Of a stretch of DNA of 42,548 nucleotides, positions 8,027-40,290 are shown piece after piece. Each line of letters opens with the position of its first letter. Positions within the stretch are counted from its first letter, which is position 1. Under the pieces are notes generated by a model. It was not told where the DNA came from, ran no database searches, and was given only the letters and a program-made list of their open reading frames with translations. The stretch comes from a virus (lineage: Duplodnaviria; Heunggongvirae; Uroviricota; Caudoviricetes). Position numbers and translations under genes: made by a program. The stretch is taken from the IMG/VR virus record IMGVR_UViG_2671180275_000010. One strand, written 5' to 3'.

Positions 8027-8719
8027 TTAATTGTGTCGCTTAAGGGTTTGTGACTGGCTGATTAAGACCTTTCCAAAGACCATAAACCGGTGTTCATTTT
8101 CGCTGGTAATTCCCCATTCACGGTAAATCTGGTTATCAGAAATTACCAGTAGTTTGTCAGGTATCATTTGCAGTCGTTTGACATAAATTTTATCATCAAA
8201 ACCAAACACATAGATACCATCCCCATCAAACTGATTGATACTGATATCAACGAAGATGAGATCTCCTGGCTCAATGGTTGGACACATACTGTCCCCACGA
8301 ACGTTGATAACTTTAATGTGATTTGCTGGTCGTCCACCAAACATCGATACAGCATTATCAGTTCTGTATTCAATGGCATGAATCACATCAATGACATCAC
8401 CGCCCTGGATAAGGCCATTTCCCGCACTGGCACTGACATCCAGCATTTCAATACGGAATACATCCTTCACCTGCGCAACATCCTCACTAATACTGTTTTT
8501 ACATACAGTATTACTTTTGAGGTCTGAGGTAAAGAGATCAGCAATATCAACACCTAAGCTCCTGGCAATATTACTCAGGGCTTGTTCAGTGAATTGTTTC
8601 TGCTTACCTGTTTCGAGGCGCGAGATATTCGCCGCATCCACTCCTATTGCTTCAGCGAGATCGGCGATTTTCATGTTCTTCGCCTGGCGAAGTTGTCTGA
8701 CTCGATTTCCTATGTTCAT
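8027..8719 (-). CDS. cI: CI-like prophage repressor (HTH_XRE N-terminal domain + S24 LexA-like autopeptidase domain)
   Basis: 230 aa; HTH (IADLAEAIGVDAANISRLETG); Ala-Gly cleavage site (SASAGNG); S24 catalytic Ser in GDSMCPTI and Lys in VKRL; divergent from cro. Confidence 0.9.
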   Translation of the reverse strand: MNIGNRVRQLRQAKNMKIADLAEAIGVDAANISRLETGKQKQFTEQALSNIARSLGVDIADLFTSDLKSNTVCKNSISEDVAQVKDVFRIEMLDVSASAGNGLIQGGDVIDVIHAIEYRTDNAVSMFGGRPANHIKVINVRGDSMCPTIEPGDLIFVDISINQFDGDGIYVFGFDDKIYVKRLQMIPDKLLVISDNQIYREWGITSENEHRFMVFGKVLISQSQTLKRHN

Positions 8720-9077: not shown

Positions 9078-9627
9078 GCATCACTGGAAAGTGGAAAAAC
9101 AACCTGAGTGGTACGTGAAAGCTGTCAGAAAAACTATCGCGGCATTGCCTGGGGGTTACGCTGAAGCTGCTGACTGGCTGGATGTAACAGAGAACGCTTT
9201 ATTCAACCGCCTTCGTGCAGATGGCGATCAGATTTTCCCGCTGGGATGGGCAATGGTTTTACAGCGTGCGGCTGGCACTCACTACATTGCGGATGCTGTC
9301 GCACAGTCTGCTGGTGGGGTGTTCGTATCGCTTCCTGAAATTGAGGCAGTAGAGAACGCCGATATAAACCAGCGCCTGCTGGAAGTCATTGAACAGATCG
9401 GCGGTTATTCCAGACAGATTCGTTCAGCAATCGAAGACGGTGTAGTGGAACCGCATGAGAAGACAGCAATTAACGACGAACTGTATCTTTCAATTTCGAA
9501 GCTCCAGGAGCATGCAGCACTGGTCTACAAAATCTTCTGCGCTCCAGAAAATAGTAACGCCCGCGAGTGTGCAGCTCCGGGCGTCGTGGCGTCGATTGCT
9601 TCTGGTTGTGGAGAAACTAACGCATGA
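9070..9627 (+). CDS. CII-like / YdaT-like regulatory protein
   Basis: 185-aa ORF with GTG start overlapping the cro stop; N-terminal HTH-like segment; position equivalent to cII/ydaT. Confidence 0.4.
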   Translation: MGKHHWKVEKQPEWYVKAVRKTIAALPGGYAEAADWLDVTENALFNRLRADGDQIFPLGWAMVLQRAAGTHYIADAVAQSAGGVFVSLPEIEAVENADINQRLLEVIEQIGGYSRQIRSAIEDGVVEPHEKTAINDELYLSISKLQEHAALVYKIFCAPENSNARECAAPGVVASIASGCGETNA

Positions 9628-9772
9628 ATAGTTTAACGGCAAATAACCGTTTGTCGCAACAGCTGGTGGTCAGCGTCGCTGAACACCTGTTGTTACGGCA
9701 TGAATGCAGATTACCAAATCACCTGGCTGTAAGTAACCACAGAGAACTTTACCTGACTGTGGGGGGCGAGTT

Positions 9773-9952
9773 GTGCAGGAACTTAACCGCTGGTTTCGTG
9801 ACGGAAGAGGGCTTTATGTCCATGTTATTCGTTGGGAGCCAGAAACACAGCGCGTTATCTATCTTCGCAAAGACTACCCGCATGAGTGCTTTAGTCCTTT
9901 GTGGAAATTCAGGCGTGATTTTGTTGAGTGTGAAGGACCACCAGCATATTGA
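9773..9952 (+). CDS. Possible small protein (59 aa) in an alternative frame of the long track ORF 9624..10775
   Basis: Frame gives protein-like sequence (...RWFRDGRGLYVHVIRWEPETQRVIYLRKDYPHECFSPLWKF...) with GTG start after a G-rich stretch; not in ORF track (under 60 aa). Confidence 0.25.
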   Translation: MQELNRWFRDGRGLYVHVIRWEPETQRVIYLRKDYPHECFSPLWKFRRDFVECEGPPAY

Positions 9953-10037
9953 TTCTGCAATTCCGGGACGTTACACTGTTCCGGCACCTTATAAAGCGGG
10001 TGCCGGGCGTGGAAACCCGAAATTCAATATAGAGCAC

Positions 10038-10060
10038 AACCGCGCTCATGCGGTTTTTTC
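10038..10060 (+). terminator. Intrinsic terminator-like hairpin (AACCGC-GCTCAT-GCGGTT + TTTTTT)
   Basis: 6-bp GC-rich stem followed by a 6-T run; lies inside the implausible N-terminal extension of the Rha ORF. Confidence 0.4.
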
Positions 10061-10229
10061 GTGTCATGAGCATCGTTACGCCCAAATTATGGTGGGGCGT
10101 GCAGGGCCAACTTCGGTTGGGCCGGGTTCTATGTTGACCGGTATTTCCACCCCTGTACGTCTCACCACCTATATGGTCGTGGAAAGCCTTGGTGGTGAGT
10201 TCATTGAATTCAACATAGGGGCTGTCACC

Positions 10230-10775
10230 ATGACTACTCTCCCAACCCAATCTCACCCTGAAATCACGATTATCAATGGTCGCGTTGTCACCACATCTCT
10301 TGCAGTAGCTAATTACTTTACTAAACGGCATGAGCGGGTTTTAGATAGAATTAGAAACCTCGAATGTTCCGCTGAATTTACTGAACACAATTTTGTGTTA
10401 AGTGAATACACCGACGCATCAGGCCGCAAACTCCCTTGTTACCAAATCACCCGCGACGGTTTTGCGTTTCTTGCTATGGGTTTCACGGGTAAACGTGCTG
10501 CCCGGTTCAAAGAGGCATACATCAATGCCTTTAACCAGATGGAAAAACTGCTTTCAAAGCCATCCACGCTGAGCGATGCCGCAGATAACGCCAGCGTGCT
10601 TTACTCCCACCTGTCGGTAATCCACAAGGTCTGGCTGCAGCAGCTTTATCCCATGTTGGCAAAAGCCGAATCCCCGCTGGCTGTAAGTCTGTATGACCGC
10701 ATCAACGACGCGGCGCTACTGGCCAGTCTCATAAATTTGTCGCTGAACCCTTCAGAGGTAAGGGGGCGCAAATGA
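10230..10775 (+). CDS. Rha-family phage regulatory protein (antirepressor-like)
   Basis: C-terminal 181 aa of track ORF 9624..10775 starting at internal ATG; ITIINGRVVTTSLAVANYFTKRHERVLDRIRNL ... YQITRDGFAFLAMGFTGKRAARFKEAYINAFNQME matches the Rha domain signature. Confidence 0.7.
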   Translation: MTTLPTQSHPEITIINGRVVTTSLAVANYFTKRHERVLDRIRNLECSAEFTEHNFVLSEYTDASGRKLPCYQITRDGFAFLAMGFTGKRAARFKEAYINAFNQMEKLLSKPSTLSDAADNASVLYSHLSVIHKVWLQQLYPMLAKAESPLAVSLYDRINDAALLASLINLSLNPSEVRGRK

Positions 10776-10996: not shown

Positions 10997-11292
10997 ACTG
11001 TTTTCAGTTTGTGTGCGGATGTGCTTTCGATAACCCGATTCAGCGCCTGATTATGTTGCGTGTTTTGATGTCGGGTTCTTCAGACGGTGAAGGCGAGAGA
11101 GTTATTGATCATCAGGTGCTTGCTGATTTCTGCTGTTGTTCTAAGCAAGCGATATTCAGGGAAACCCTGGCACTGGAAAGAGCTGGTTATCTTCATATCC
11201 GAAAAATTGCAACGCTTACTATTGATGCAAAAGCCAGACTACAACCTGCGCGTGGCTACACAATTCTCATGCTGCGGAAGGAGGTTGTATGA
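10993..11292 (+). CDS. Putative winged-helix DNA-binding protein
   Basis: 99-aa ORF, coupled to neighbours; HTH-like segment CSKQAIFRETLALERAGYL. Confidence 0.4.
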   Translation: MNCFQFVCGCAFDNPIQRLIMLRVLMSGSSDGEGERVIDHQVLADFCCCSKQAIFRETLALERAGYLHIRKIATLTIDAKARLQPARGYTILMLRKEVV

Positions 11293-12272
11293 GCCGTTAC
11301 GCCCCCACACCGGAAGTTATGGCTATTGGTCAAATTAATATTTCCGGCAATGTTACACCTGCGACCTGGTGGAAATATATTCGACTACCCAGTGGGCGTC
11401 CGGATGCGACGGCTATCGCTCTGCTTTCAGAGATCGTTTACTGGTACCGCCCGACAGAGGTCAGGGATGAGCACACCGGAGCGTTGCTGGGATATCGCAA
11501 GCGTTTTCAGGGCGACAAACTGCAAAGAAGCTACCAGGCGTTTGCTGAGCAGTTTGGTTTCGGGAAAAGGGAAACCGCAGATGCGCTGAAGCGTCTGCGC
11601 GATGCAGGGTTTATTACTCTGGATTTACGCACGGTGGAAATGCTCGATGGGGTGAAATGCAGCAATATTTTGTTTGTCGGGATCAACCCACAGGCAATTG
11701 CGGCCATCACCACACCTTCTTCTGTTTCGCCAGAAAGTAACAGCAATAATGCAATCAGCGATACAGCTATTACGTTAAAACGGAACACCCCCCGACGTCA
11801 TAACGGAACAGGGGATACGCCGAATGTTGATACAAATACAGAGATTACTACAGAGATTACAACGGAGACTAAAAACACTATTGATGCATCCGCTGACGCG
11901 TCTGCGCCAGCGCGTTCTGCCCGACAGGAATATTCACCGGAATTTGAACAGGCCTGGCAGGAATATCCCAAACGTGCTGGTGGCAATTCAAAATCAGCAG
12001 CCTTCAAAGCCTGGAAAGCCCGTTTGAACGAGGGGGTAAACCCCGAAACCATGCTGGAAGGTGTGAAACGCTACGCGGGCTGGGTATCTGCGATGGGCAA
12101 TAGCGGCACACAATTTGTGAAACAGGCTGTCACGTTCTTTGGTCCGGATCGTCATTTCGAAGAATCCTGGGAAGTTCCTGCGGTATCTGCAGCCAGACGC
12201 GAGGACCCGTACTTCAAAGCCAGTTACGACAACGTGGACTACAGCCAGATCCCGACAGGATTCAGGGGGTGA
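11289..12272 (+). CDS. Putative phage replication initiation protein (O-like role; carries in-gene iterons)
   Basis: 327-aa ORF in the replication position; two domains joined by a Thr/Glu-rich linker (TEITTEITTET) encoded by tandem repeats, as in lambda O / ori. Confidence 0.55.
   Translation: MSRYAPTPEVMAIGQINISGNVTPATWWKYIRLPSGRPDATAIALLSEIVYWYRPTEVRDEHTGALLGYRKRFQGDKLQRSYQAFAEQFGFGKRETADALKRLRDAGFITLDLRTVEMLDGVKCSNILFVGINPQAIAAITTPSSVSPESNSNNAISDTAITLKRNTPRRHNGTGDTPNVDTNTEITTEITTETKNTIDASADASAPARSARQEYSPEFEQAWQEYPKRAGGNSKSAAFKAWKARLNEGVNPETMLEGVKRYAGWVSAMGNSGTQFVKQAVTFFGPDRHFEESWEVPAVSAARREDPYFKASYDNVDYSQIPTGFRG
11829..11873. repeat. Iteron-like tandem 12-bp direct repeats (ACAGAGATTAC(T/A) x2 plus degenerate copies); candidate replication origin inside the replication gene
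   Basis: Perfect tandem duplication ACAGAGATTACT ACAGAGATTACA followed by ACGGAGACT; coordinates derived from codon positions 184-194 of the ORF. Confidence 0.4.
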
Positions 12273-12763
12273 TCATGAGTCTGATGAACGATGTACAGAA
12301 ATTCATTGAAGCCCATCCGGGGTGTACTTCAGGTGACATTGCGGATGCTTTTGCTGGTTACTCACGACAGTGCGTTCTGCAGTCAGCAAGCAAGTTACGT
12401 CAGAGTGGCCGTGTGGCTCACTGTTGTGAAGGGAAAACACGCAGACATTTCCCACACCAGGCTGAGATATCGCAGGAGGAGAAACTGCAACCTGTTCTTG
12501 AAACCATACCTGTGCGCAATTTCTATGTCGGCACTAACGATCCCCGGGTGATTTTGTGCCTGACCCGCCAGGCGGAAGAACTGGAGTCCAGGGGCTTATA
12601 CCGTCGTGCTGCAACCGTGTGGATGGCGGCATTCCGTGAAAGCCACTCCCAGCCAGAACGAAACAATTTTCTGGCGCGTCGTGAGCGGTGCTTACGGAAA
12701 AGCAGAAAGCGCGCTGTAGCGGGTGATGAGTGGTATCTGTCAGGGAATTACGTGGGGGCTTAA
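12269..12763 (+). CDS. Hypothetical replication-module protein
   Basis: 164-aa ORF, coupled between the replication initiator and the methylase. Confidence 0.4.
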   Translation: MIMSLMNDVQKFIEAHPGCTSGDIADAFAGYSRQCVLQSASKLRQSGRVAHCCEGKTRRHFPHQAEISQEEKLQPVLETIPVRNFYVGTNDPRVILCLTRQAEELESRGLYRRAATVWMAAFRESHSQPERNNFLARRERCLRKSRKRAVAGDEWYLSGNYVGA

Positions 12764-13416
12764 TGAGTAATAAATATTGCCAGGCGCTGGTGGAACTACG
12801 GAACAAACCAGCCCATGAACTGAAGGAAGTGGGCGATCAGTGGCGCACGCCGGACAACATTTTCTGGGGAATTAACACCCTGTTTGGCCCGTTTGTTCTG
12901 GATCTGTTTACTGACGGTGATAACGCCAAATGTGCCGCGTATTACACGGCGGAAGACAACGCGCTGGCACATGACTGGTCAGAACGTCTTGCGGAGCTTA
13001 AAGGTGCTGCCTTTGGTAATCCCCCGTACAGCCGCGCCAGTCAGCATGAGGGACAATACATCACCGGCATGCGTTACATCATGAAGCATGCCAGTGCCAT
13101 GCGTGATAAAGGCGGGCGCTATGTTTTCCTGATCAAAGCGGCCACCAGCGAAGTGTGGTGGCCGGAAGATGCAGATCATATTGCTTTTATTCGCGGGCGT
13201 ATTGGTTTTGAACTGCCAGCCTGGTTTATCCCGAAAGACGAAAAGCAGGTGCCAACAGGTGCTTTCTTCGCTGGTGCTATTGCTGTTTTCGACAAGACCT
13301 GGAAGGGAGCGGCAATCAGCTACATCGGGCGCGATGAACTTGAGGCATGTGGTGAGGCATTTCTGGCGCAGGCTCGCCAGCAGGCGGAAAAACTGGTCAG
13401 GGAGATGGCGGCATGA
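12763..13416 (+). CDS. Phage Dam-family N6-adenine DNA methyltransferase (orphan)
   Basis: Start at Met12 of the track ORF (ATG overlapping the upstream stop); motifs DLFTDGDN and catalytic FGNPPYS (NPPY); no adjacent restriction endonuclease. Confidence 0.8.
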   Translation: MSNKYCQALVELRNKPAHELKEVGDQWRTPDNIFWGINTLFGPFVLDLFTDGDNAKCAAYYTAEDNALAHDWSERLAELKGAAFGNPPYSRASQHEGQYITGMRYIMKHASAMRDKGGRYVFLIKAATSEVWWPEDADHIAFIRGRIGFELPAWFIPKDEKQVPTGAFFAGAIAVFDKTWKGAAISYIGRDELEACGEAFLAQARQQAEKLVREMAA

Positions 13417-13739
13417 CGACATTAACTCAATGCCAGCAGCAGGTGCTGGATATGCTGATTTCTTATCAGAAAGAACGTGGCTTCCCGCCAACCAATCAGG
13501 AGGTGGCAACCATGCTGGGATACCGTTCGGTGAATGCAGCGGTGGAGCATCTTCGCGCACTGGAGAAAAAAGGCGTCATCACGATAAAGCGTGGCGTGGC
13601 CCGGGGGATAACGCTTCATACTGCGATGAAGGACGACGACAGCGAGGCGGTCGGGATTATCCGCGCACTGCTTGCCGGTGAGGAAAACGCAAGGCTGCGT
13701 GCAACCCACTGGTTACATGAGAGGGGCCTGAAAGTATGA
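13413..13739 (+). CDS. LexA N-terminal DNA-binding-domain-only protein (no S24 peptidase domain)
   Basis: 108 aa; aligns with E. coli LexA residues 1-70 including the recognition helix (ours RSVNAAVEHLRALEKKGVI vs LexA RSPNAAEEHLKALARKGVI); the ORF ends where the LexA cleavage/peptidase domain would begin. Confidence 0.75.
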   Translation: MTTLTQCQQQVLDMLISYQKERGFPPTNQEVATMLGYRSVNAAVEHLRALEKKGVITIKRGVARGITLHTAMKDDDSEAVGIIRALLAGEENARLRATHWLHERGLKV

Positions 13740-14131
13740 AGCTAATACTGCCTTTTCCGCCCAGCGTGAACACGTACTGGCGACACCCTAACAAAGGGGC
13801 GTTTGCTGGTAAGAGCCTGATAAGCGCGGCGGGGCGAAAATTCCAGAGCGCGGCGTGTGCAGCAATAGTTGAGCAGTTACGTCGTCTGCCGAAACCAACG
13901 TCGGCACCTGCTTCAGTGGAGATCGTGTTGTTTCCTCCGGATAACCGGATCCGCGATCTGGACAACTATAACAAGGCGCTGTTTGACGCCCTGACCCACG
14001 CGGGTGTGTGGGAAGACGACAGCCAGGTGAAAAGAATGCTGGTGGAGTGGGGACCGGTTATCCCGGAAGGGAAGGTCGAGATCACTATCAGTAAGTACGA
14101 AAAAGCGAGTTGCAAATTAGCAACTCGGTAA
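13736..14131 (+). CDS. rusA: RusA Holliday-junction resolvase
   Basis: 131 aa; LPFPPSVN and DLDNYNKALFDAL signature blocks of RusA. Confidence 0.9.
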   Translation: MKLILPFPPSVNTYWRHPNKGAFAGKSLISAAGRKFQSAACAAIVEQLRRLPKPTSAPASVEIVLFPPDNRIRDLDNYNKALFDALTHAGVWEDDSQVKRMLVEWGPVIPEGKVEITISKYEKASCKLATR

Positions 14132-14176
14132 CGGAATTGAGCAACACCCTAAATTTGGGTATTACCTCGTTAAAGA

Positions 14177-14196
14177 TACTGTATTTATGAACAGTG
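14177..14196. promoter_or_regulatory. LexA (SOS) box TACTGTATTTATGAACAGTG in the promoter region upstream of the KilA-N gene
   Basis: Matches CTGT-N8-ACAG with AT-rich spacer; sits in the 150-bp intergenic gap with -35/-10-like elements (TTGATA ... TAAGTT) immediately downstream. Confidence 0.65.
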
Positions 14197-14293
14197 TATC
14201 CTTGATAACTATTAAAAATCGCAGTAAGTTCATCCTGCATCAACGAAAAGGGAGTGCAGTCCCGCTCGTGGATAAAAATTTGTGGAGAAACCA

Positions 14294-15109
14294 ATGAATC
14301 AGTTGCTTGTAATTGATGGCGTTTCTGTGCGCCAGTACTTCGAATCTAACTACTGTCTTAACGACCTTCAGAAAGCTGCTCTTCTTGCCGCTGGTGAGAA
14401 TCGCTCCTCCCGTTCGCTGGAAGTTCACGAGTTTATGCGTCGTCCTGAAACGAAGGCTCTTGTGGAATTATTGGAAGAAGAAACTACGGGAGATTCCCGT
14501 AGTATTCCTGTCATCACCATTCAGGGGCGCAATGGTGGGACGTATGTCTGTAAAGAGCTGGTCTATGCATATGCAATGTGGATCAGCCCGGCATTCAGCT
14601 TAAAAGTGATACGTACTTTTGATGCGCTTCATAATTCATCACCAGAAGAAACCACATCCGACAAAATTAAATCCGGGGTCATTCTGCTTGAATCAGCAGC
14701 AAAGACTCTAAATCTGTCAAACTCCTCGAAACTTGGTGCATACCAGAAATTATCAAAGGTAGCTGGTCTTCCTGAACTTATGCCGATCTATGCCATTGAT
14801 GCACCTGCTGATGCGCCAGATGGTTCAAGCCGCCCTACGCTGTCGCTGAGTGCACTGCTGAAGCAGTATGGTATCCGCCTGACGGCTAATCAGGCATATC
14901 ACCAGATGGCGAAGCTGGGGATCGTTGAACAACGCGAACGATACAGCCGTACCGCGATTAACAACATCAAAAAATTCTGGTCGCTGACAGCGAAAGGCTG
15001 CATGTTCGGCAAGAACATCACCAGTCCTGCAAATCCGCGCGAGACGCAGCCGCATTTCTTCGAATCCCGATTCCCTGAGCTGTTAAAGCTGCTCGATACC
15101 GTTCACTGA
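14294..15109 (+). CDS. KilA-N domain protein (antirepressor-like)
   Basis: Start at ATG preceded by GGAGAA (track ORF starts at GTG 14282); KilA-N/APSES-like core GTYVCKELVYAYAMWISPAFSLKVIRTFDAL. Confidence 0.8.
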   Translation: MNQLLVIDGVSVRQYFESNYCLNDLQKAALLAAGENRSSRSLEVHEFMRRPETKALVELLEEETTGDSRSIPVITIQGRNGGTYVCKELVYAYAMWISPAFSLKVIRTFDALHNSSPEETTSDKIKSGVILLESAAKTLNLSNSSKLGAYQKLSKVAGLPELMPIYAIDAPADAPDGSSRPTLSLSALLKQYGIRLTANQAYHQMAKLGIVEQRERYSRTAINNIKKFWSLTAKGCMFGKNITSPANPRETQPHFFESRFPELLKLLDTVH

Positions 15110-15124
15110 TGGGAGGCGTGGAGC

Positions 15125-15640
15125 ATGAGAATTACACCACCCCATCTGCAGCCAGTTTTATCCAGGGTTAAACGTTTTGTTGAACGAATGCCGGAAGGCG
15201 CAACACTGACCCAGATATCACAGAAAGTGCAGGCGTACAGTCTACTGAATAAAAGGGATAAGGAGATACTCATTGGCATTATCCGCGACAGTGGACTTCT
15301 GGTCGTTGCGAATGATGGAAGAACTACAACGTTACATCATCCTAAATTTGGACATCAGGCAGTAAATAGTGAAATACCAGTAAAAACAGAGGAACCCGTT
15401 GTGATTAAAAAGACCGTTACTCCGGATGAATTACGCAGGCATGCTGAGGAGCTGATCAGGGCTGCGGAAGAAGCAGAGAAGAAATTTAATGATCGTGCGG
15501 AAATTAAAAAGCAACTGGATCCTCTGAAACTGGAAATCCTCCAGGCGTATGGAATGGCAAGTCGTAAATTTGATGAGTTTGTTGATGCTATGGCGGATAT
15601 GGGGAAAGCGGTACAGAAACTGAAACAGATTGTGCTGTGA
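15125..15640 (+). CDS. Hypothetical protein (N-terminal wHTH-like, C-terminal coiled coil)
   Basis: 171-aa ORF in the KilA-N to Q operon. Confidence 0.45.
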   Translation: MRITPPHLQPVLSRVKRFVERMPEGATLTQISQKVQAYSLLNKRDKEILIGIIRDSGLLVVANDGRTTTLHHPKFGHQAVNSEIPVKTEEPVVIKKTVTPDELRRHAEELIRAAEEAEKKFNDRAEIKKQLDPLKLEILQAYGMASRKFDEFVDAMADMGKAVQKLKQIVL

Positions 15641-15649
15641 GGTTCTACG

Positions 15650-16639
15650 TTGAGAGCACTACTGACCCCTGAAATTGCCCCGCGTATGGGGATCGTATTG
15701 TTCAGGCCAGGTTCAGAGCTGATGCCCCTGTTTATGCAGGGGCGTGTCCTGCTGGAGCCTGAGCCGGAGCGTTATTCATCTTTCGCCAGTGGTGCCGTTC
15801 CGGCGGCATCACAACCGCTGGCGGATGATCCTGCCGTTCGGGCCGTGTTCCGCAATGAGGCGGTGATCCGTCGTGCTGGTGGCGTGGAATGCCTTGAGAG
15901 CTGGTTACTTCGTGAAAAGGGCTGTCAGTGGCCTCATTCCGACTGGCACAGCGAGAACATGACCACAATGCGGCACGCGCCAGGCGCAATCCGTCTGTGC
16001 TGGCACTGTGACAATCTCCTCCGTGACCAGTTCACGGAACGGCTGGAATCAATGGCAACGGATAACTGTGCCCGCTGGGTGTTGTCTGTTGTGCGCCGTG
16101 ATCTTGGTTTTGATGACAGTCACGTTGTGACAATGCCGGAACTGTGCTGGTGGCTGGTTCGTAATGACCTGGCGGATGCCTTACCGGAAAGTGCAGCCCG
16201 TAAGGTACTGAGATTACCGAAGACGGTTGTGCCGTCTGTCACCCGGGAAAGTGACCTTGTGCCTTCGGTTCCCGCCACCAGTATTATCCGGGATAAAGCG
16301 AAAAAGGTGCTGGCGCTGAAAGTGGATCCGGAGTCGCCGGAGTCTTTTATGTTACGCCCAAAACGTCGCCGCTGGGTTAATGAAAAGTACACGCGCTGGG
16401 TTAAGACGCAGCCGTGCGCATGTTGTGGAAAACCTGCTGATGATCCCCACCACCTGATAGGTCACGGTCAGGGCGGAATGGGTACAAAAGCGCATGACCT
16501 CTTTGTGTTGCCTTTGTGCAGAAAGCATCACGACGAGCTGCATGCGGATACCGTGGCATTTGAAGAGAAGTATGGCTCCCAGCTGGAGCTGATATTTCGT
16601 TTTATCGATCGCGCGCTGGCGATTGGTGTGCTGTCCTGA
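15650..16639 (+). CDS. DUF968-domain protein (YdfU-like) with C-terminal Cys/His-rich HNH-like cluster
   Basis: 329 aa; C-terminal CACCGKPADDPHHLIGHGQGGMGTKAHDLFVLPLCRKHHDELH; alternative start possible at Met13. Confidence 0.65.
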   Translation: MRALLTPEIAPRMGIVLFRPGSELMPLFMQGRVLLEPEPERYSSFASGAVPAASQPLADDPAVRAVFRNEAVIRRAGGVECLESWLLREKGCQWPHSDWHSENMTTMRHAPGAIRLCWHCDNLLRDQFTERLESMATDNCARWVLSVVRRDLGFDDSHVVTMPELCWWLVRNDLADALPESAARKVLRLPKTVVPSVTRESDLVPSVPATSIIRDKAKKVLALKVDPESPESFMLRPKRRRWVNEKYTRWVKTQPCACCGKPADDPHHLIGHGQGGMGTKAHDLFVLPLCRKHHDELHADTVAFEEKYGSQLELIFRFIDRALAIGVLS

Positions 16640-16656
16640 TTTTGTGGAGAAAGTTG

Positions 16657-17049
16657 ATGCGTGATATTCAGATGGTTCTCGAACGCTGGGGGGCATGGGC
16701 GGCAAGTGGTAACGCCGGGGTGGACTATTCTCCGATAGCTGCTGGATTTAAAGGCCTTTTACCATCCACCGCTAAACCTCGCCCGGCCTGCAGCGATGAT
16801 GACGGCCTTATCATCGAAAACTGCCTTACGCGCCTGAAGAAGAAAAAACCGGACGAGTATTCGCTGCTGGTAGCTCATTATCTGCTGCGCATATCAAAAA
16901 GGCAGATTGCCAGAACAAGAAAGAAGAGCGAAAAGGCAATACGAATTGAGATGCAGATTGCTGAAGGATTTATTGACGGATGTCTGTCGATGCTGGGTGT
17001 AAGGCTGGAGATGGACGACTGGCTGCCCAAAAAAGTAAAAAATGATTAG
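16657..17049 (+). CDS. Q: Late-gene antiterminator Q (QuuD/phage-82-type)
   Basis: MRDIQMVLERWGAWAA... N-terminus matches E. coli DLP12 QuuD as I recall it; located directly upstream of the late-regulatory region; track ORF starts at alternative codon 16642. Confidence 0.8.
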   Translation: MRDIQMVLERWGAWAASGNAGVDYSPIAAGFKGLLPSTAKPRPACSDDDGLIIENCLTRLKKKKPDEYSLLVAHYLLRISKRQIARTRKKSEKAIRIEMQIAEGFIDGCLSMLGVRLEMDDWLPKKVKND

Positions 17050-17107
17050 CGCGGTCCGCAAAAAGTATGTCAGTATGTTAAGAGTGGTTACTACGCCACA
17101 CAACTTA

Positions 17108-17132
17108 AACCCGCCGCCTGGCGGGTTTTTTA
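17108..17132 (+). terminator. Intrinsic terminator just downstream of Q
   Basis: AACCCGCC-GCCT-GGCGGGTT hairpin followed by TTTTTTAT. Confidence 0.6.
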
Positions 17133-17268
17133 TGACTGAAATCGCATCAGTACAGTAAACGTGCTGGTGGTGAATACCTGTCTTTCAGCTTGCTGGCTTT
17201 TTAGACAAGAGTTATTGGTATGTCACGTTAACCGGAAAAGGGAAAAAGACATGCTAAAACAGTAGGAT

Positions 17269-17448
17269 ATGACAGAAACCGCCAGAGTGGTGTTTAATGA
17301 ATTAAGCGTCACCTACCCGGCGACAGTCGGGGAGATTGCGCAGAATACTTACCTTTCACGCGAACGCTGCCAGTTAATACTGACCCAGCTGGTTATGGCG
17401 GGTCTGGCAGACTATCAGTTCGGTTGTTACAGACGCCTTCCGCAGTGA
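17269..17448 (+). CDS. Small hypothetical protein (59 aa, winged-helix-like)
   Basis: ATG preceded by AGGA; ends inside a terminator hairpin; not in ORF track (under 60 aa); MTETARVVFNELSVTYPATVGEIAQNTYLSRERCQLILTQLVMAGLADYQFGCYRRLPQ. Confidence 0.35.
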   Translation: MTETARVVFNELSVTYPATVGEIAQNTYLSRERCQLILTQLVMAGLADYQFGCYRRLPQ

Positions 17449-17460
17449 AGGCTTTTTTAT
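17435..17460 (+). terminator. Intrinsic terminator (GCCTTC-CGCAGT-GAAGGC + TTTTTTATTT)
   Basis: Perfect 6-bp stem and long T-run directly after the small ORF. Confidence 0.6.
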
Positions 17461-17570
17461 TTGTGGTAAATGGGCGGCTGGTGGGTGTGGTGGTTGTTGC
17501 TTTCCCGTTGCTGAAAAAGAAAGCATCAGGCGATTAGCAGGGTATCAGTTACCCGTTGAAATTTTTAAAT

Positions 17571-17805
17571 ACCTCACAATTCAGGCGGTTGACTGTTGTC
17601 TGGTTTGCGGGGAGTTTGTTAAAAGAAACTGGCATGGTGAATCCCCCTGTGCGGAGGGGCAATCAGCAACTGGTGTTTTGTCACCGACCCTTATCCTTTC
17701 TGTGCGGGTTCAGGTGCTGATACTGAACTCACCGGGAGGCACCCGGCACCATGCAATGGCACATAGCGCCACTCTCCAGCCCCTCTCCGGAGGGGCTTTT
17801 CTGTG
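17571..17805 (+). repeat. Late promoter/leader/terminator-like unit, copy 1 (TTGACT -35-like motif, conserved hairpins, terminal GCCCCTC-TCCG-GAGGGGC hairpin + U-tract)
   Basis: Shares three conserved blocks with copy 2, in the same order and spacing. Confidence 0.5.
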
Positions 17806-17991
17806 CCGGATACATCACAGTTTCTGGAACCTTGGGTACTACAGTATCAGTCAGGGTGCTATATTTTCAGATGTGATGAAAGCCTGTCAGCAGGCAGGGC
17901 GTATCGGAAATGACCCAGTAGAGAAAACGTTGACTCAGATACCGGTGCTGAGTTACCGGGAAACCGGCATCACATGACCGCTATCCTTCCA

Positions 17992-18055: not shown

Positions 18056-18292
18056 CTCACAATTCAGTAAGTTGACAGTTGCCTGTCAGACTGGGCATTT
18101 GTTAAAAAAATTTCGCATGGTGAATCCCCCTGAGCGGAGGGGCGACTGGTGACGGTATAATCTCTGATTATCAAAACGAGAATGACGCGGGTTTAGTGGC
18201 ACCGGGCTGAACTCACCGGGAGGCACCCGGCACCATGTGCATGATGATACAGATACGCGGCTTTAGCCCCTCTCCGGAGGGGCTTTCTTGTG
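18056..18292 (+). repeat. Late promoter/leader/terminator-like unit, copy 2 (TTGACA motif, internal TATAAT at about 18156, terminal GCCCCTC-TCCG-GAGGGGC hairpin)
   Basis: Paralogous to copy 1; immediately upstream of nanS-p and the lysis genes. Confidence 0.5.
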
Positions 18293-18295
18293 GGC

Positions 18296-18321
18296 AAAAA
18301 AAAGCCCGAGTGGGTTCGGGC
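18296..18321 (-). terminator. Minus-strand intrinsic terminator (GCCCGA-GTGGGT-TCGGGC followed by 8 U on the minus strand)
   Basis: Hairpin preceded on the plus strand by AAAAAAAA. Confidence 0.45.
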
Positions 18322-18376
18322 AACAGCATGAGATATACATTTTTATAATCGAATGGATTTTAACCAGAATTCATAA

Positions 18377-21406: not shown

Positions 21407-22042
21407 ATGAATAAACAATACGAACTGGTTGTTAAAGGGATAAATAATTACCCGGATAAGATTACTGTTACTGTGGCACTGGAAATTGCCGGGCAGCCGT
21501 CGTTGTTGTCGCCATATGTGGCGATTAGTCTTGACCGTACTGAAGGTGCCACGCTGGAATTTTACGAAGCTGAGGCGAAAAAACAGGCGAAGCAGTTTTT
21601 CATGGATATTGCTGCCGCTTTATGTGAAGGGGATGAGCAGTCGCCGGAAAAGCGCCCCATAATTTTAGAGGCGCAGGATGTGTTGATAACCTACAGAGGA
21701 AAACTACCGGGAATAATTACTGGTTCTCTGAAGACGCCACCGACGGCATTGCGGTCAGAAAACGATGATATTGAATCACGCATTGAAAAACTGGAGTGCT
21801 ATATCGCTGAATTGAAAAAAAGCACCCCAACAAAAAATGAGGTGCTTGCAGCAGATGAAATGAAAGAAACTATTCTTGATCGCGCGGCGCATCTAAGCTG
21901 CGCTTCACGGTTGAAAGAGCATCTTCAGCGGCCTGAAGAAAAACGCCGCGATGAGCAGTTCGCGGCGTTTTACGATTATTGCATTGAAGTTACTCGCAGG
22001 AATTTTGTGAAGGCTTTTGAGGAGAGTAAATCTCTTCAGTAA
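21407..22042 (+). CDS. Hypothetical protein inserted in the lysis cassette
   Basis: 211-aa ORF starting 3 nt after the holin stop with GGAGAG SD; AT-richer than neighbours; no recognisable motif. Confidence 0.55.
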   Translation: MNKQYELVVKGINNYPDKITVTVALEIAGQPSLLSPYVAISLDRTEGATLEFYEAEAKKQAKQFFMDIAAALCEGDEQSPEKRPIILEAQDVLITYRGKLPGIITGSLKTPPTALRSENDDIESRIEKLECYIAELKKSTPTKNEVLAADEMKETILDRAAHLSCASRLKEHLQRPEEKRRDEQFAAFYDYCIEVTRRNFVKAFEESKSLQ

Positions 22043-38968: not shown

Positions 38969-39712
38969 ATGACACAGACTGAATCAGCGATTCTGGCGCA
39001 TGCCCGGCGGTGTGCGCCAGCGGAGTCGTGCGGCTTCGTGATAAGCACCCCGGAGGGCGAACGGTACCAGCCCTGCGTGAATATCTCCGCAGAGCCGGAG
39101 GCGTATTTTCGTATTGCACCGGAAGACTGGCTGCGGGCAGAGATGCAGGGGGAGATTGTGGCACTGGTCCACAGTCATCCCGGTGGTCTGCCCTGGCTGA
39201 GCGAGGCTGACCGGCGGCTGCAGATAAAAAGCGCACTGCCCTGGTGGCTGGTCAGCCGGGGTGACATTCACAAATTCCGCTGTGTGCCACATCTGACAGG
39301 ACGGCGCTTTGAGCACGGGGTGACGGACTGTTACACGCTGTTCCGGGATGCCTACCATCTGGCGGGAATTGATATGCCGGATTTTCATCGCGAGGATGAC
39401 TGGTGGCGCAACGGCCAGAACCTGTACCTGGACAATATGGAGGGAACGGGCTTTTACCGGGTGCCCCTGTCCTCTGCACAGGCGGGCGATATTCTGCTGT
39501 GCTGCTTTGGTGCTTCGGTACCGAACCATGCCGCCATTTACTGTGGCAACGGTGAGCTGCTTCACCATCTGCCTGAACAACTGAGTAAACGGGAGAGGTA
39601 TTCCGAAAAATGGCAACGACGAACGCATTCTGTCTGGCGTCACCGCCACTGGCACGCATCTGCCTTCACGGGGATTTACAACGATTTGGCCGCCGCCTCA
39701 GCCTGTATGTGA
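38969..39712 (+). CDS. K: Tail assembly protein K (JAB/MPN + NlpC/P60-like)
   Basis: Start at Met88 of track ORF (MTQTESAILAHARRCAP...) matching the lambda gpK N-terminus; HSHPGG motif. Confidence 0.85.
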   Translation: MTQTESAILAHARRCAPAESCGFVISTPEGERYQPCVNISAEPEAYFRIAPEDWLRAEMQGEIVALVHSHPGGLPWLSEADRRLQIKSALPWWLVSRGDIHKFRCVPHLTGRRFEHGVTDCYTLFRDAYHLAGIDMPDFHREDDWWRNGQNLYLDNMEGTGFYRVPLSSAQAGDILLCCFGASVPNHAAIYCGNGELLHHLPEQLSKRERYSEKWQRRTHSVWRHRHWHASAFTGIYNDLAAASACM

Positions 39713-40290
39713 ACACGGCAGCGGAAGCCATCCGGGCGCTGTCGTTACAGGTGCCCGGATTCCGCCGTCAGATGAACGAAGGCTGGTACCAGATACGCAT
39801 TGCCGGTGAGGATACGGCACCGGAGGCGGTGTATGCCCGCCTTCACGAACCACTGGGTGAGGGAACGGTTATCCATATTGTGCCGCGACTGGCCGGGGCC
39901 GGAAAGGGCGGACTACAGATTGTGCTGGGGGCAGCTGCCATTGTGGGGTCTTTCTTCACGGCCGGAGCATCAATGGCGTTATGGGGTTCAGCCCTGGCAG
40001 TCGGTGGTTTTTCTGCCACCACGATGCTGTTTTCACTGGGTGCCAGTATGATTCTGGGCGGTGTGGCCCAGATGCTGGCCCCGAAGGCAAAAACACCGGA
40101 TTACCGCGCAACGGATAACGGCAGACAGAACACGTACTTTTCGTCACTGGACAACATGATTGCCCAGGGTAACCCGATGCCGGTGCCTTACGGGGAAATG
40201 CTGGTTGGCTCCCGCCGTATATCCCAGGACATCAGTACCCGTGATGAAGGCGGGGGCGGGAAAGTGGTGGTTATCGGACGGCAGGGGTAA
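39610..40290 (+). CDS. I: Tail assembly protein I
   Basis: 226 aa; N-terminus ...ARICLHGDLQRFGRR... and Gly/Ala-rich hydrophobic centre as in lambda gpI; overlaps the 3' end of K. Confidence 0.85.
   Translation: MATTNAFCLASPPLARICLHGDLQRFGRRLSLYVNTAAEAIRALSLQVPGFRRQMNEGWYQIRIAGEDTAPEAVYARLHEPLGEGTVIHIVPRLAGAGKGGLQIVLGAAAIVGSFFTAGASMALWGSALAVGGFSATTMLFSLGASMILGGVAQMLAPKAKTPDYRATDNGRQNTYFSSLDNMIAQGNPMPVPYGEMLVGSRRISQDISTRDEGGGGKVVVIGRQG

Follow-up and report, generated by a model that had tools for sequence, protein, structure and literature searches.

The DNA analysed here (the window) is a 42,548-nucleotide lambdoid Escherichia coli prophage (IMG/VR record IMGVR_UViG_2671180275_000010), identical over positions 13700–15700 to strain CP55_Sichuan (100%) and closest among named phages to Shigella phage SfIV and Escherichia phage PhiR49_1. 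Between rusA and the gene for a KilA-N domain protein lies a gap (14132–14293) that contains what is, judged by its sequence, a genuine, high-quality LexA operator at 14177–14196, and next to it a predicted, phylogenetically conserved sigma-70 promoter, which we call P_kil, reading toward KilA-N and the late-gene antiterminator Q. We propose that host LexA damps P_kil and that the SOS response releases it, giving the KilA-N-to-Q genes a CI-independent input; we hold this to be a serious possibility, somewhat short of probable. P_kil would transcribe the genes for KilA-N, a 171-aa protein, a DUF968 protein and Q without relying on pR. As long as a lysogen is unstressed, host LexA sitting on the operator would damp the promoter, the probable mechanism being that it masks the alpha-CTD/UP region and crowds sigma region 4. 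DNA damage would lead, through RecA-stimulated cleavage of LexA, to release of the promoter, and the Q operon would receive an SOS-dependent, CI-independent signal alongside the cleavage of the S24-type CI. After pR has fired, an uncleavable 108-aa phage protein related to LexA would be made, and it can probably re-occupy the box. The proposal draws on features read from sequence and comparison: a high-quality box, the promoter, a constant distance separating the two, the layout of the operon and the recognition residues of the phage paralogue. From these we infer binding by LexA, the direction and size of its effect on P_kil, read-through to Q and the role of the paralogue.

The box, TACTGTATTTATGAACAGTG, has a palindromic CTGT-N8-ACAG core (CTGTATTTATGAACAG, 14179–14194) whose spacer is A or T at seven of eight bases; the window holds three CTGT-N8-ACAG motifs, compared with 0.48 expected. 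We scored it with an approximate LexA position matrix built from ~27 E. coli sites. At 22.3 bits, the box falls in the middle of the range of the matrix training sites (13–28 bits), and none of 300 Markov shuffles of the window attained this score (maximum 11.1 ± 2.4), so the canonical LexA box reported in the first-pass annotation is upheld at exactly that position. The window has one other strong site (8491–8510, 25.9 bits), and its third-best reaches only 10.8 bits. Relative to TACTG(TA)5CAGTA the box has four mismatches, and a search that tolerates up to three lists only the 8491–8510 site, which lies in cI. The sequence is unchanged across all loci of the window type; the sole variants of the 20-mer seen are those of SfIV and AZ187, a 90%-identical variant, where the final base is A, nearer the consensus. 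An exact scan for the 20-mer in a collection of reference genomes returned only ~38 genomes, from Burkholderia and other proteobacteria (L084–L121). The Burkholderia copies are paired with an adjacent second box, CACTGGTTATATTTACAGTA, about 10 nt before the ATG of a small open reading frame (ORF) (e.g., 1215–1258 of L117, Burkholderia cenocepacia), and presumably belong to a host SOS gene unrelated to the genes of the window. This usage marks the 20-mer as an SOS box and is uninformative about the phage.

The first-pass annotation also described −35/−10-like elements beside the box. These are real: on the plus strand, P_kil consists of TTGATA (14202–14207) and TAAGTT (14225–14230) separated by 17 nt, with a predicted start near 14237, and it ranks first of 32,345 plus-strand sigma-70 sites in the 6.5 kb from 11001 to 17500. 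Its counterparts rank in the top five in eight other loci. A stricter sigma-70 promoter scan does not list P_kil. Three positions of the −10 hexamer (T, A and the final T) do not vary across 12 aligned junctions, at a KilA-N identity among those lineages of only 65%–80%. One group of lineages has TTGAAA, TTGATA, TTGCTA or TTGCAT 17 nt from the −10, and the group that lacks a −35 has an extended −10 (TGn) instead, which appears to compensate for the missing hexamer. The box itself does not lie over the core promoter.

The setting of the promoter is unusual for this region. From cro (8817) to Q (17049), the 162 nt at 14132–14293 are the sole intergenic space of more than ~20 nt, in agreement with the earlier description of this gap as the only sizeable one. 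Upstream, the genes from cro to rusA abut or overlap each other in a tightly coupled array; downstream, the KilA-N, 171-aa, DUF968 and Q genes are co-directional and 9–15 nt apart, tightly packed as had been stated. We found no plus-strand terminator between the box and KilA-N, a point on which the first-pass annotation had said its proposal hung. The only plus-strand terminator-like sites before Q are weak and lie inside the DUF968 gene (e.g., 16573–16591), and a strong one is found past Q at 17435–17452. Because no convincing terminator precedes Q, transcripts from P_kil should reach it.

How the box would act on P_kil is harder to read. It ends 5 bp before the −35, with its core at about −58 to −43 and its center near −50.5 (the −10 hexamer taken as −12 to −7), and it overlaps no core element of P_kil, only weak candidate promoters on either strand. 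Two such candidates on the plus strand (TTGGGT/16/TACTGT and TTGAGC/17/TATTAC) have chance-level scores, are not conserved and were set aside. Characterized E. coli SOS operators generally cover the −35, the spacer, the −10 or the +1, and the position seen here resembles an activator site or UP element more than a usual SOS operator. Given that the box stands outside the core promoter, the strength, and even the direction, of regulation is unreadable from the letters.

Comparison with relatives reveals three kinds of rusA–KilA-N junction. The window type, with the full gap, is found in SfIV, PhiR49_1 and 186 of 5,426 complete E. coli genomes, including O104:H4, O55:H7, O157:H7 and O111:H8 strains; matches to the gene module itself (LexA-like, RusA, KilA-N, DUF968) occur in 2,405 of the 5,426. 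In the second, common type (SfII, mEp460, Stx2a_WGPS2), 19 nt separate rusA from KilA-N, and neither box nor promoter is present. Distant lineages (Citrobacter, Kluyvera, a Cedecea-like phage, metagenomes) have junctions of 90–120 nt that align with the right part of the window gap. In nine of ten diverged lineages the top LexA-matrix hit of the whole 4–6 kb locus falls at the homologous spot, and the core ends 29–31 nt from the −10 in every homologous case. The best of these homologous palindromes score 19.3 and 17.5 bits, forms with a canonical CTGT..ACAG core score 13–14 bits, and palindromes in which only one half-site is good (GTGG..ACAG) reach with their left half into the final codons of rusA. 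Hence, the operator is old and constrained in position, yet less strictly kept than the promoter or than a hairpin in the leader described below.

Several observations weigh against LexA control of P_kil. The box lies upstream of the −35, so repression from about −50 may be weak. The common 19-nt junction lacks the element altogether, and since SfII, mEp460 and Stx2a_WGPS2 are viable without the gap, any input through the LexA box must be accessory. The box is degenerate in lineages that keep the promoter (6 bits in L129, 7.4 bits in Kluyvera) and missing beside a kept promoter in Citrobacter and Cedecea, from which it follows that the promoter does not need LexA control. If Q were under LexA control with no buffering, mild SOS would risk setting off lysis. 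The matrix used for scoring is approximate, and in the published literature we found nothing on the locus under the box sequence, KilA-N or DUF968 with LexA, or LexA with a lambdoid Q operon. Much of this would also suit a box that binds LexA to little or no regulatory effect, either as a drifting or relic site or as a weak roadblock to read-through from pR, with Q essentially pR-dependent. Loss or decay of the box in several promoter-keeping lineages, the viable phages that lack the whole element and the location outside the core promoter all fit such a site, and window-type sequences are mutually too alike to reveal purifying selection on the box. Against an idle site stand the 29–31-nt spacing fixed across lineages, the top rank of the box in nine of ten of them and the variants of the 20-mer, which only move toward the consensus, and we regard it as unlikely.

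The early region also encodes a second potential ligand of the box, which the first-pass annotation had missed. The gene at 13413–13739 (plus strand), in the pR early operon and two genes upstream of KilA-N, specifies a 108-aa protein that covers the full Pfam LexA_DNA_bind profile (E = 2.9e-19) and matches the structure of the E. coli LexA N-terminal domain (1LEA, E = 6e-16); no S24 protease domain was found in it with Pfam. It retains Ser39, Asn41, Ala42 and Glu45, four of the five DNA-contacting residues listed in PMC3091678, as well as the RGI of the wing. In an AlphaFold2 (AF2) model, a flexible linker connects a winged helix-turn-helix to two C-terminal helices, which are modelled with confidence; this two-helix tail, conserved in distant homologues, could replace the dimerizing domain of LexA. 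The order LexA-like, RusA, box/promoter, KilA-N, DUF968, Q is kept down to 45%–50% identity of the paralogue (Citrobacter, Kluyvera, Cedecea-like phage). None of the sources checked gives the protein a functional name.

This gene raises the question of whether the box is mainly the operator of the 108-aa protein, with binding by host LexA secondary. Made from pR, the protein could activate P_kil from about −50.5, in a delayed cascade running from pR through the LexA-like protein and Q to the late genes, or it could re-repress P_kil and other SOS boxes after host LexA has been destroyed. The conserved recognition residues, the lack of a protease domain together with a tail that could dimerize, the long-standing synteny with box, promoter and Q, and the activator-type location just upstream of the −35 would all be accommodated in this way, and GIL01 offers a precedent, in that its truncated LexA homologue gp6 acts from −43.5 to activate a late promoter (PMC6182141). 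Other evidence pulls the opposite way. Relatives that have lost both promoter and box still carry a 97%-identical paralogue, which places its main job elsewhere. Recognition helices of the LexA-like phage proteins and box half-sites show no covariation: L179 and L183 share the same helix, and their boxes are CTGT..ACAG and GTGG..CCAG. Promoters such as TTGAAA/17/TAATGT are near-consensus and should need no activator, and the N-terminal domain of LexA on its own binds weakly unless dimerized. On balance, we doubt that the box serves mainly the phage protein. The two ligands might also act in turn, as a two-LexA switch on the Q operon, in which host LexA would hold P_kil until SOS and the uncleavable protein made from pR would then take over that box, perhaps along with the host SOS regulon and the cI box, timing the late genes and resetting or hijacking SOS; we consider this quite improbable. 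As a separate observation, each of the five phage genomes with a LexA-like gene that were scanned has at least one box above 20 bits, in a scan that took in no control genomes without the gene. Among phages with the short junction, mEp460_4F5 (L123) lacks a box at KilA-N; two strong LexA boxes precede its dinI gene, and one further box stands at the start of a DNA adenine methyltransferase gene, with boxes at 21688–21735 and 39700–39719.

The left part of the gap suggests a further use of the box in the lineage of the window, as the control site of a leftward, OOP-like RNA of ~70 nt. Such an RNA would start near 14166–14172 and end near 14100, antisense to the last ~30 nt of rusA, and the box would cover its −10 and spacer, so that one LexA site would serve a divergent promoter pair with P_kil; the two uses may coexist. 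One line of evidence is an intrinsic-terminator-like hairpin on the minus strand that overlaps the 3′ end of rusA (14100–14127; stem 14106–14127, U5 run 14104–14100), with eight pairs, five of them G-C, the tail CUUUUUCG and a fold of −13.5 kcal/mol (z = −5). The plus strand carries no T-run here, and the hairpin is not at the end of any minus-strand gene. A second stem-loop of the candidate RNA, at 14140–14166, is far more stable on the minus strand (10 bp, −13.4 kcal/mol) than on the plus strand (4 bp, −7.2 kcal/mol), and in AZ187 G.U pairs maintain it on the minus strand (−4.8), with nothing left of it on the plus strand (0.0). On the minus strand the left half of the box yields the −10-like sequences TACAGT/TATCTT. 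The left 75 nt of the gap (14100–14176) are confined to the window type and always accompany the most canonical boxes, and lambda oop offers a parallel down to a LexA binding sequence reported in its promoter (PMC5869508, PMC2327240). The case is weakened by the −35 candidates of the minus strand, whose scores of 3–6 are close to what chance gives in 200 nt and which are changed in AZ187, and by a mismatch in the terminator stem of AZ187 that is uncompensated. The terminator-like hairpin occurs only in the window/SfIV-type junction; the box is older than the 75-nt segment, being present in relatives that lack it. Palindromes raise fold scores on both strands, and the candidate RNA has no match in Rfam. 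We therefore rate a leftward RNA as the function of the box as rather improbable. On the same strand, a 68-aa ORF (14294–14088) was rejected as a gene, as it has no Shine-Dalgarno sequence and is not conserved.

The leader that P_kil would transcribe has features of its own. A hairpin at 14243–14269 (plus strand) in the 5′ untranslated region forms nine pairs, with compensatory changes in two of them, around an invariant (G/U)UGCAG loop; in the alignment, 97% of cells are paired, compared with 25%–49% in slid controls. It is also found in relatives without the promoter, with the stem GGCGG/CCGCC, and could act as a stabilizer of the mRNA, a mark for processing or a protein-binding site. The idea of a nut/boxB-like site was dropped: at chance-level criteria the window has 12 similar hairpins with an NTGCAN loop, and neither an N-like system nor space for a nutR after cro is present. 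The Shine-Dalgarno sequence of KilA-N, GGAG at 14284–14287 on the plus strand, lies in a GTGGAGA that is unchanged in all 12 junctions. An 11-bp indel, CTCGTGGATAA at 14265–14275, marks a sub-lineage of ~39 E. coli genomes, among them O157:H7 FRIK944 and O111:H8 strains, and the deletion takes out the 3′ arm of the outer stem of the hairpin. A 36-codon upstream ORF begins at an ATG within the LexA box (14187) and has a TGA that overlaps the ATG of KilA-N. It is probably not a real coding feature, as its frame differs between lineages across the hairpin and it has no Shine-Dalgarno sequence. In the 11-bp-deletion variants and in one other locus (L045) this ATG is in frame with KilA-N, which accounts for gene calls of 296–301 aa.

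The first gene of the operon encodes a KilA-N domain protein of 271 aa (14294–15109, plus strand; Pfam KilA-N E = 1.3e-15; phrog_129), which scores 57.6 bits against PF04383 over residues 10–114 (cut-off 23.8). The first-pass annotation took it for an antirepressor-like protein, and here our results diverge. Pfam finds no ANT/KilAC or Bro-N domain in it. In the AF2 model (predicted local distance difference test score 76), a helical linker joins the KilA-N domain to a small alpha/beta domain at the C-terminus; searched by fold, the model had no PDB match at E < 0.3, and its BFVD matches were all other KilA-N proteins. No source checked gave it a functional name. By the sequence and structure tests applied, KilA-N thus appears to be without antirepressor features. 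Next come the 171-aa protein (15125–15640, plus strand; phrog_2539, function unknown), which has no Pfam or NCBIfam family; the DUF968/HNH-like protein (15650–16639, plus strand; Pfam DUF968 E = 3.5e-81; HNHc_6); and Q (16654–17049, plus strand; Pfam Phage_antitermQ E = 3e-52, and so annotated). The 171-aa gene is restricted to a sub-lineage: in SfIV, PhiR49_1 and the prophage of O104:H4 strain C227-11 it is missing, and DUF968 directly follows KilA-N.

A better candidate for an antirepressor in this prophage is the Rha/AnrP-like gene at 9624–10775 (compare PMC4825925). Two Rfam elements, isrK (61.6 bits, 9984–10060) and the C4 antisense RNA (82.4 bits, 10085–10172), both above their gathering scores, fall within the 383-aa Rha/Ash ORF annotated there. 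The region looks like the immI region of P1 or the IsrK-orf45-AnrP module of Gifsy-1, that is, an RNA-controlled antirepressor, and the annotation of the ORF is probably over-extended.

The rest of the early region follows a lambdoid plan. The rightward operon runs from cro (8817) through ymfL, the Rha-type gene, replication genes, PerC, an N6-methyltransferase and the 108-aa gene to rusA (13736–14131, plus strand; Pfam RusA E = 6e-15, and so annotated). In the CP55_Sichuan prophage (L001, 13167–14279) an IS421 lies inside a replication gene whose counterpart in the window, 11289–12272, is an intact ORF of 327 aa; the two are otherwise identical. The S24-type CI that the first-pass annotation relied on is indeed encoded, at 8027–8719 on the minus strand, with a helix-turn-helix, a Peptidase_S24 domain (E = 6e-19), the serine in GDSM, the lysine in VKRL and an Ala-Gly cleavage site. 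The cI gene contains the best LexA box of the window (8491–8510; coding strand TACTGTATGTAAAAACAGTA), which occupies the linker codons NTVCKNSI and is overlapped by weak promoter-like sites on both strands. We take it to be one base off the umuDC box. At the equivalent position, the cI of SfII has TACTGTATATAAAAACAGTA, by way of a Cys-to-Tyr change. Among 80 cI alleles in IMG/VR the box is identical in 78, and the alleles are 99%–100% identical, too alike to test selection. On the other side of Q, the window has two tandem copies of the STnc100 small RNA family (17603–17808 and 18086–18295, plus strand; 141 and 166 bits) and an AsxR ("anti-stx2") small RNA at 18299–18351 on the minus strand, the set sitting between Q and a SASA/NanS-p esterase gene. 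This layout is that of the late-region backbone of Shiga toxin (Stx) phages, and stx genes are absent from the window.

In lambdoid and Stx-type prophages, Q times lysis and the expression of cargo genes. If our proposal is true, a Q promoter that answers to LexA would let mild DNA damage reach the late genes without, and possibly before, cleavage of CI, and our understanding of the thresholds of prophage induction would change. The LexA paralogue would be the first enterobacterial counterpart of GIL01 gp6 known to us, and it could modulate the host SOS regulon.

The closest known systems are those of Gifsy-1, -2 and -3 (dinI-antirepressor-irsA), in which accessory induction promoters in a nin-like region are under LexA control; systems of the 186 Tum type have also been named in this connection (PMC3121763). 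In both the Gifsy phages and the window, the LexA box is outside the immunity region and downstream of the replication genes, a terminator-like palindrome precedes it, and it faces a rightward operon, which in Gifsy affects induction (PMC3121763). The Gifsy repressors, however, are not cleaved and depend on the antirepressor for their inactivation, whereas the CI of the window has an intact S24 domain. The operon also differs, comprising KilA-N, DUF968 and Q rather than a small antirepressor, and the box of the window is upstream of the −35. KilA-N shows no resemblance to a known antirepressor in Pfam, PDB or BFVD, and the 171-aa product has no family. A second Gifsy-1 transcript, the antQ operon, has its own mapped start site separate from pR (PMC4825925) and resembles the operon described here in that a Q-type antiterminator comes last in a multi-gene operon with a dedicated prophage promoter, predicted in the case of the window. 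It differs in that it is reported to respond to AnrP/IsrK and not to LexA (PMC4825925), and the genes before Q are different.

For the leftward candidate, the comparison is with lambda oop, a short RNA transcribed leftward and antisense to the cII 3′ end, with a reported LexA binding sequence in its promoter pO (PMC5869508, PMC2327240). Oop and the candidate of the window are both short leftward units in a gap of a rightward operon, with a terminator or terminator-like hairpin over the upstream gene's 3′ end and with a LexA site where the promoter lies or would lie. They have no sequence or Rfam similarity, and the target in the window would be rusA or the rusA–KilA-N junction, not cII.

GIL01, a Bacillus tectivirus, is the system in which a phage LexA homologue is best placed for comparison: its gp6, a truncated LexA homologue, activates the late promoter P3 from −43.5, and host LexA represses P3 (PMC6182141). 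Both phages make, from an early operon, a protein with the LexA DNA-binding domain only, and both have a promoter leading to late functions with LexA-family sites at or upstream of the −35, which two LexA-family proteins could share. In GIL01, gp6 has a palindrome of its own, GaCACAC..GTGTGaC, and the host LexA boxes are separate and downstream, whereas the window has a single canonical SOS box and a paralogue with the base-contact residues of LexA. GIL01 also lacks a CI-type repressor, and its host, its phage type and the tail of its protein are unrelated. Relative to the known LexA-controlled induction promoters, then, what differs here is the placement of the operator, the Q operon as cargo, the cleavable CI and the syntenic LexA paralogue.

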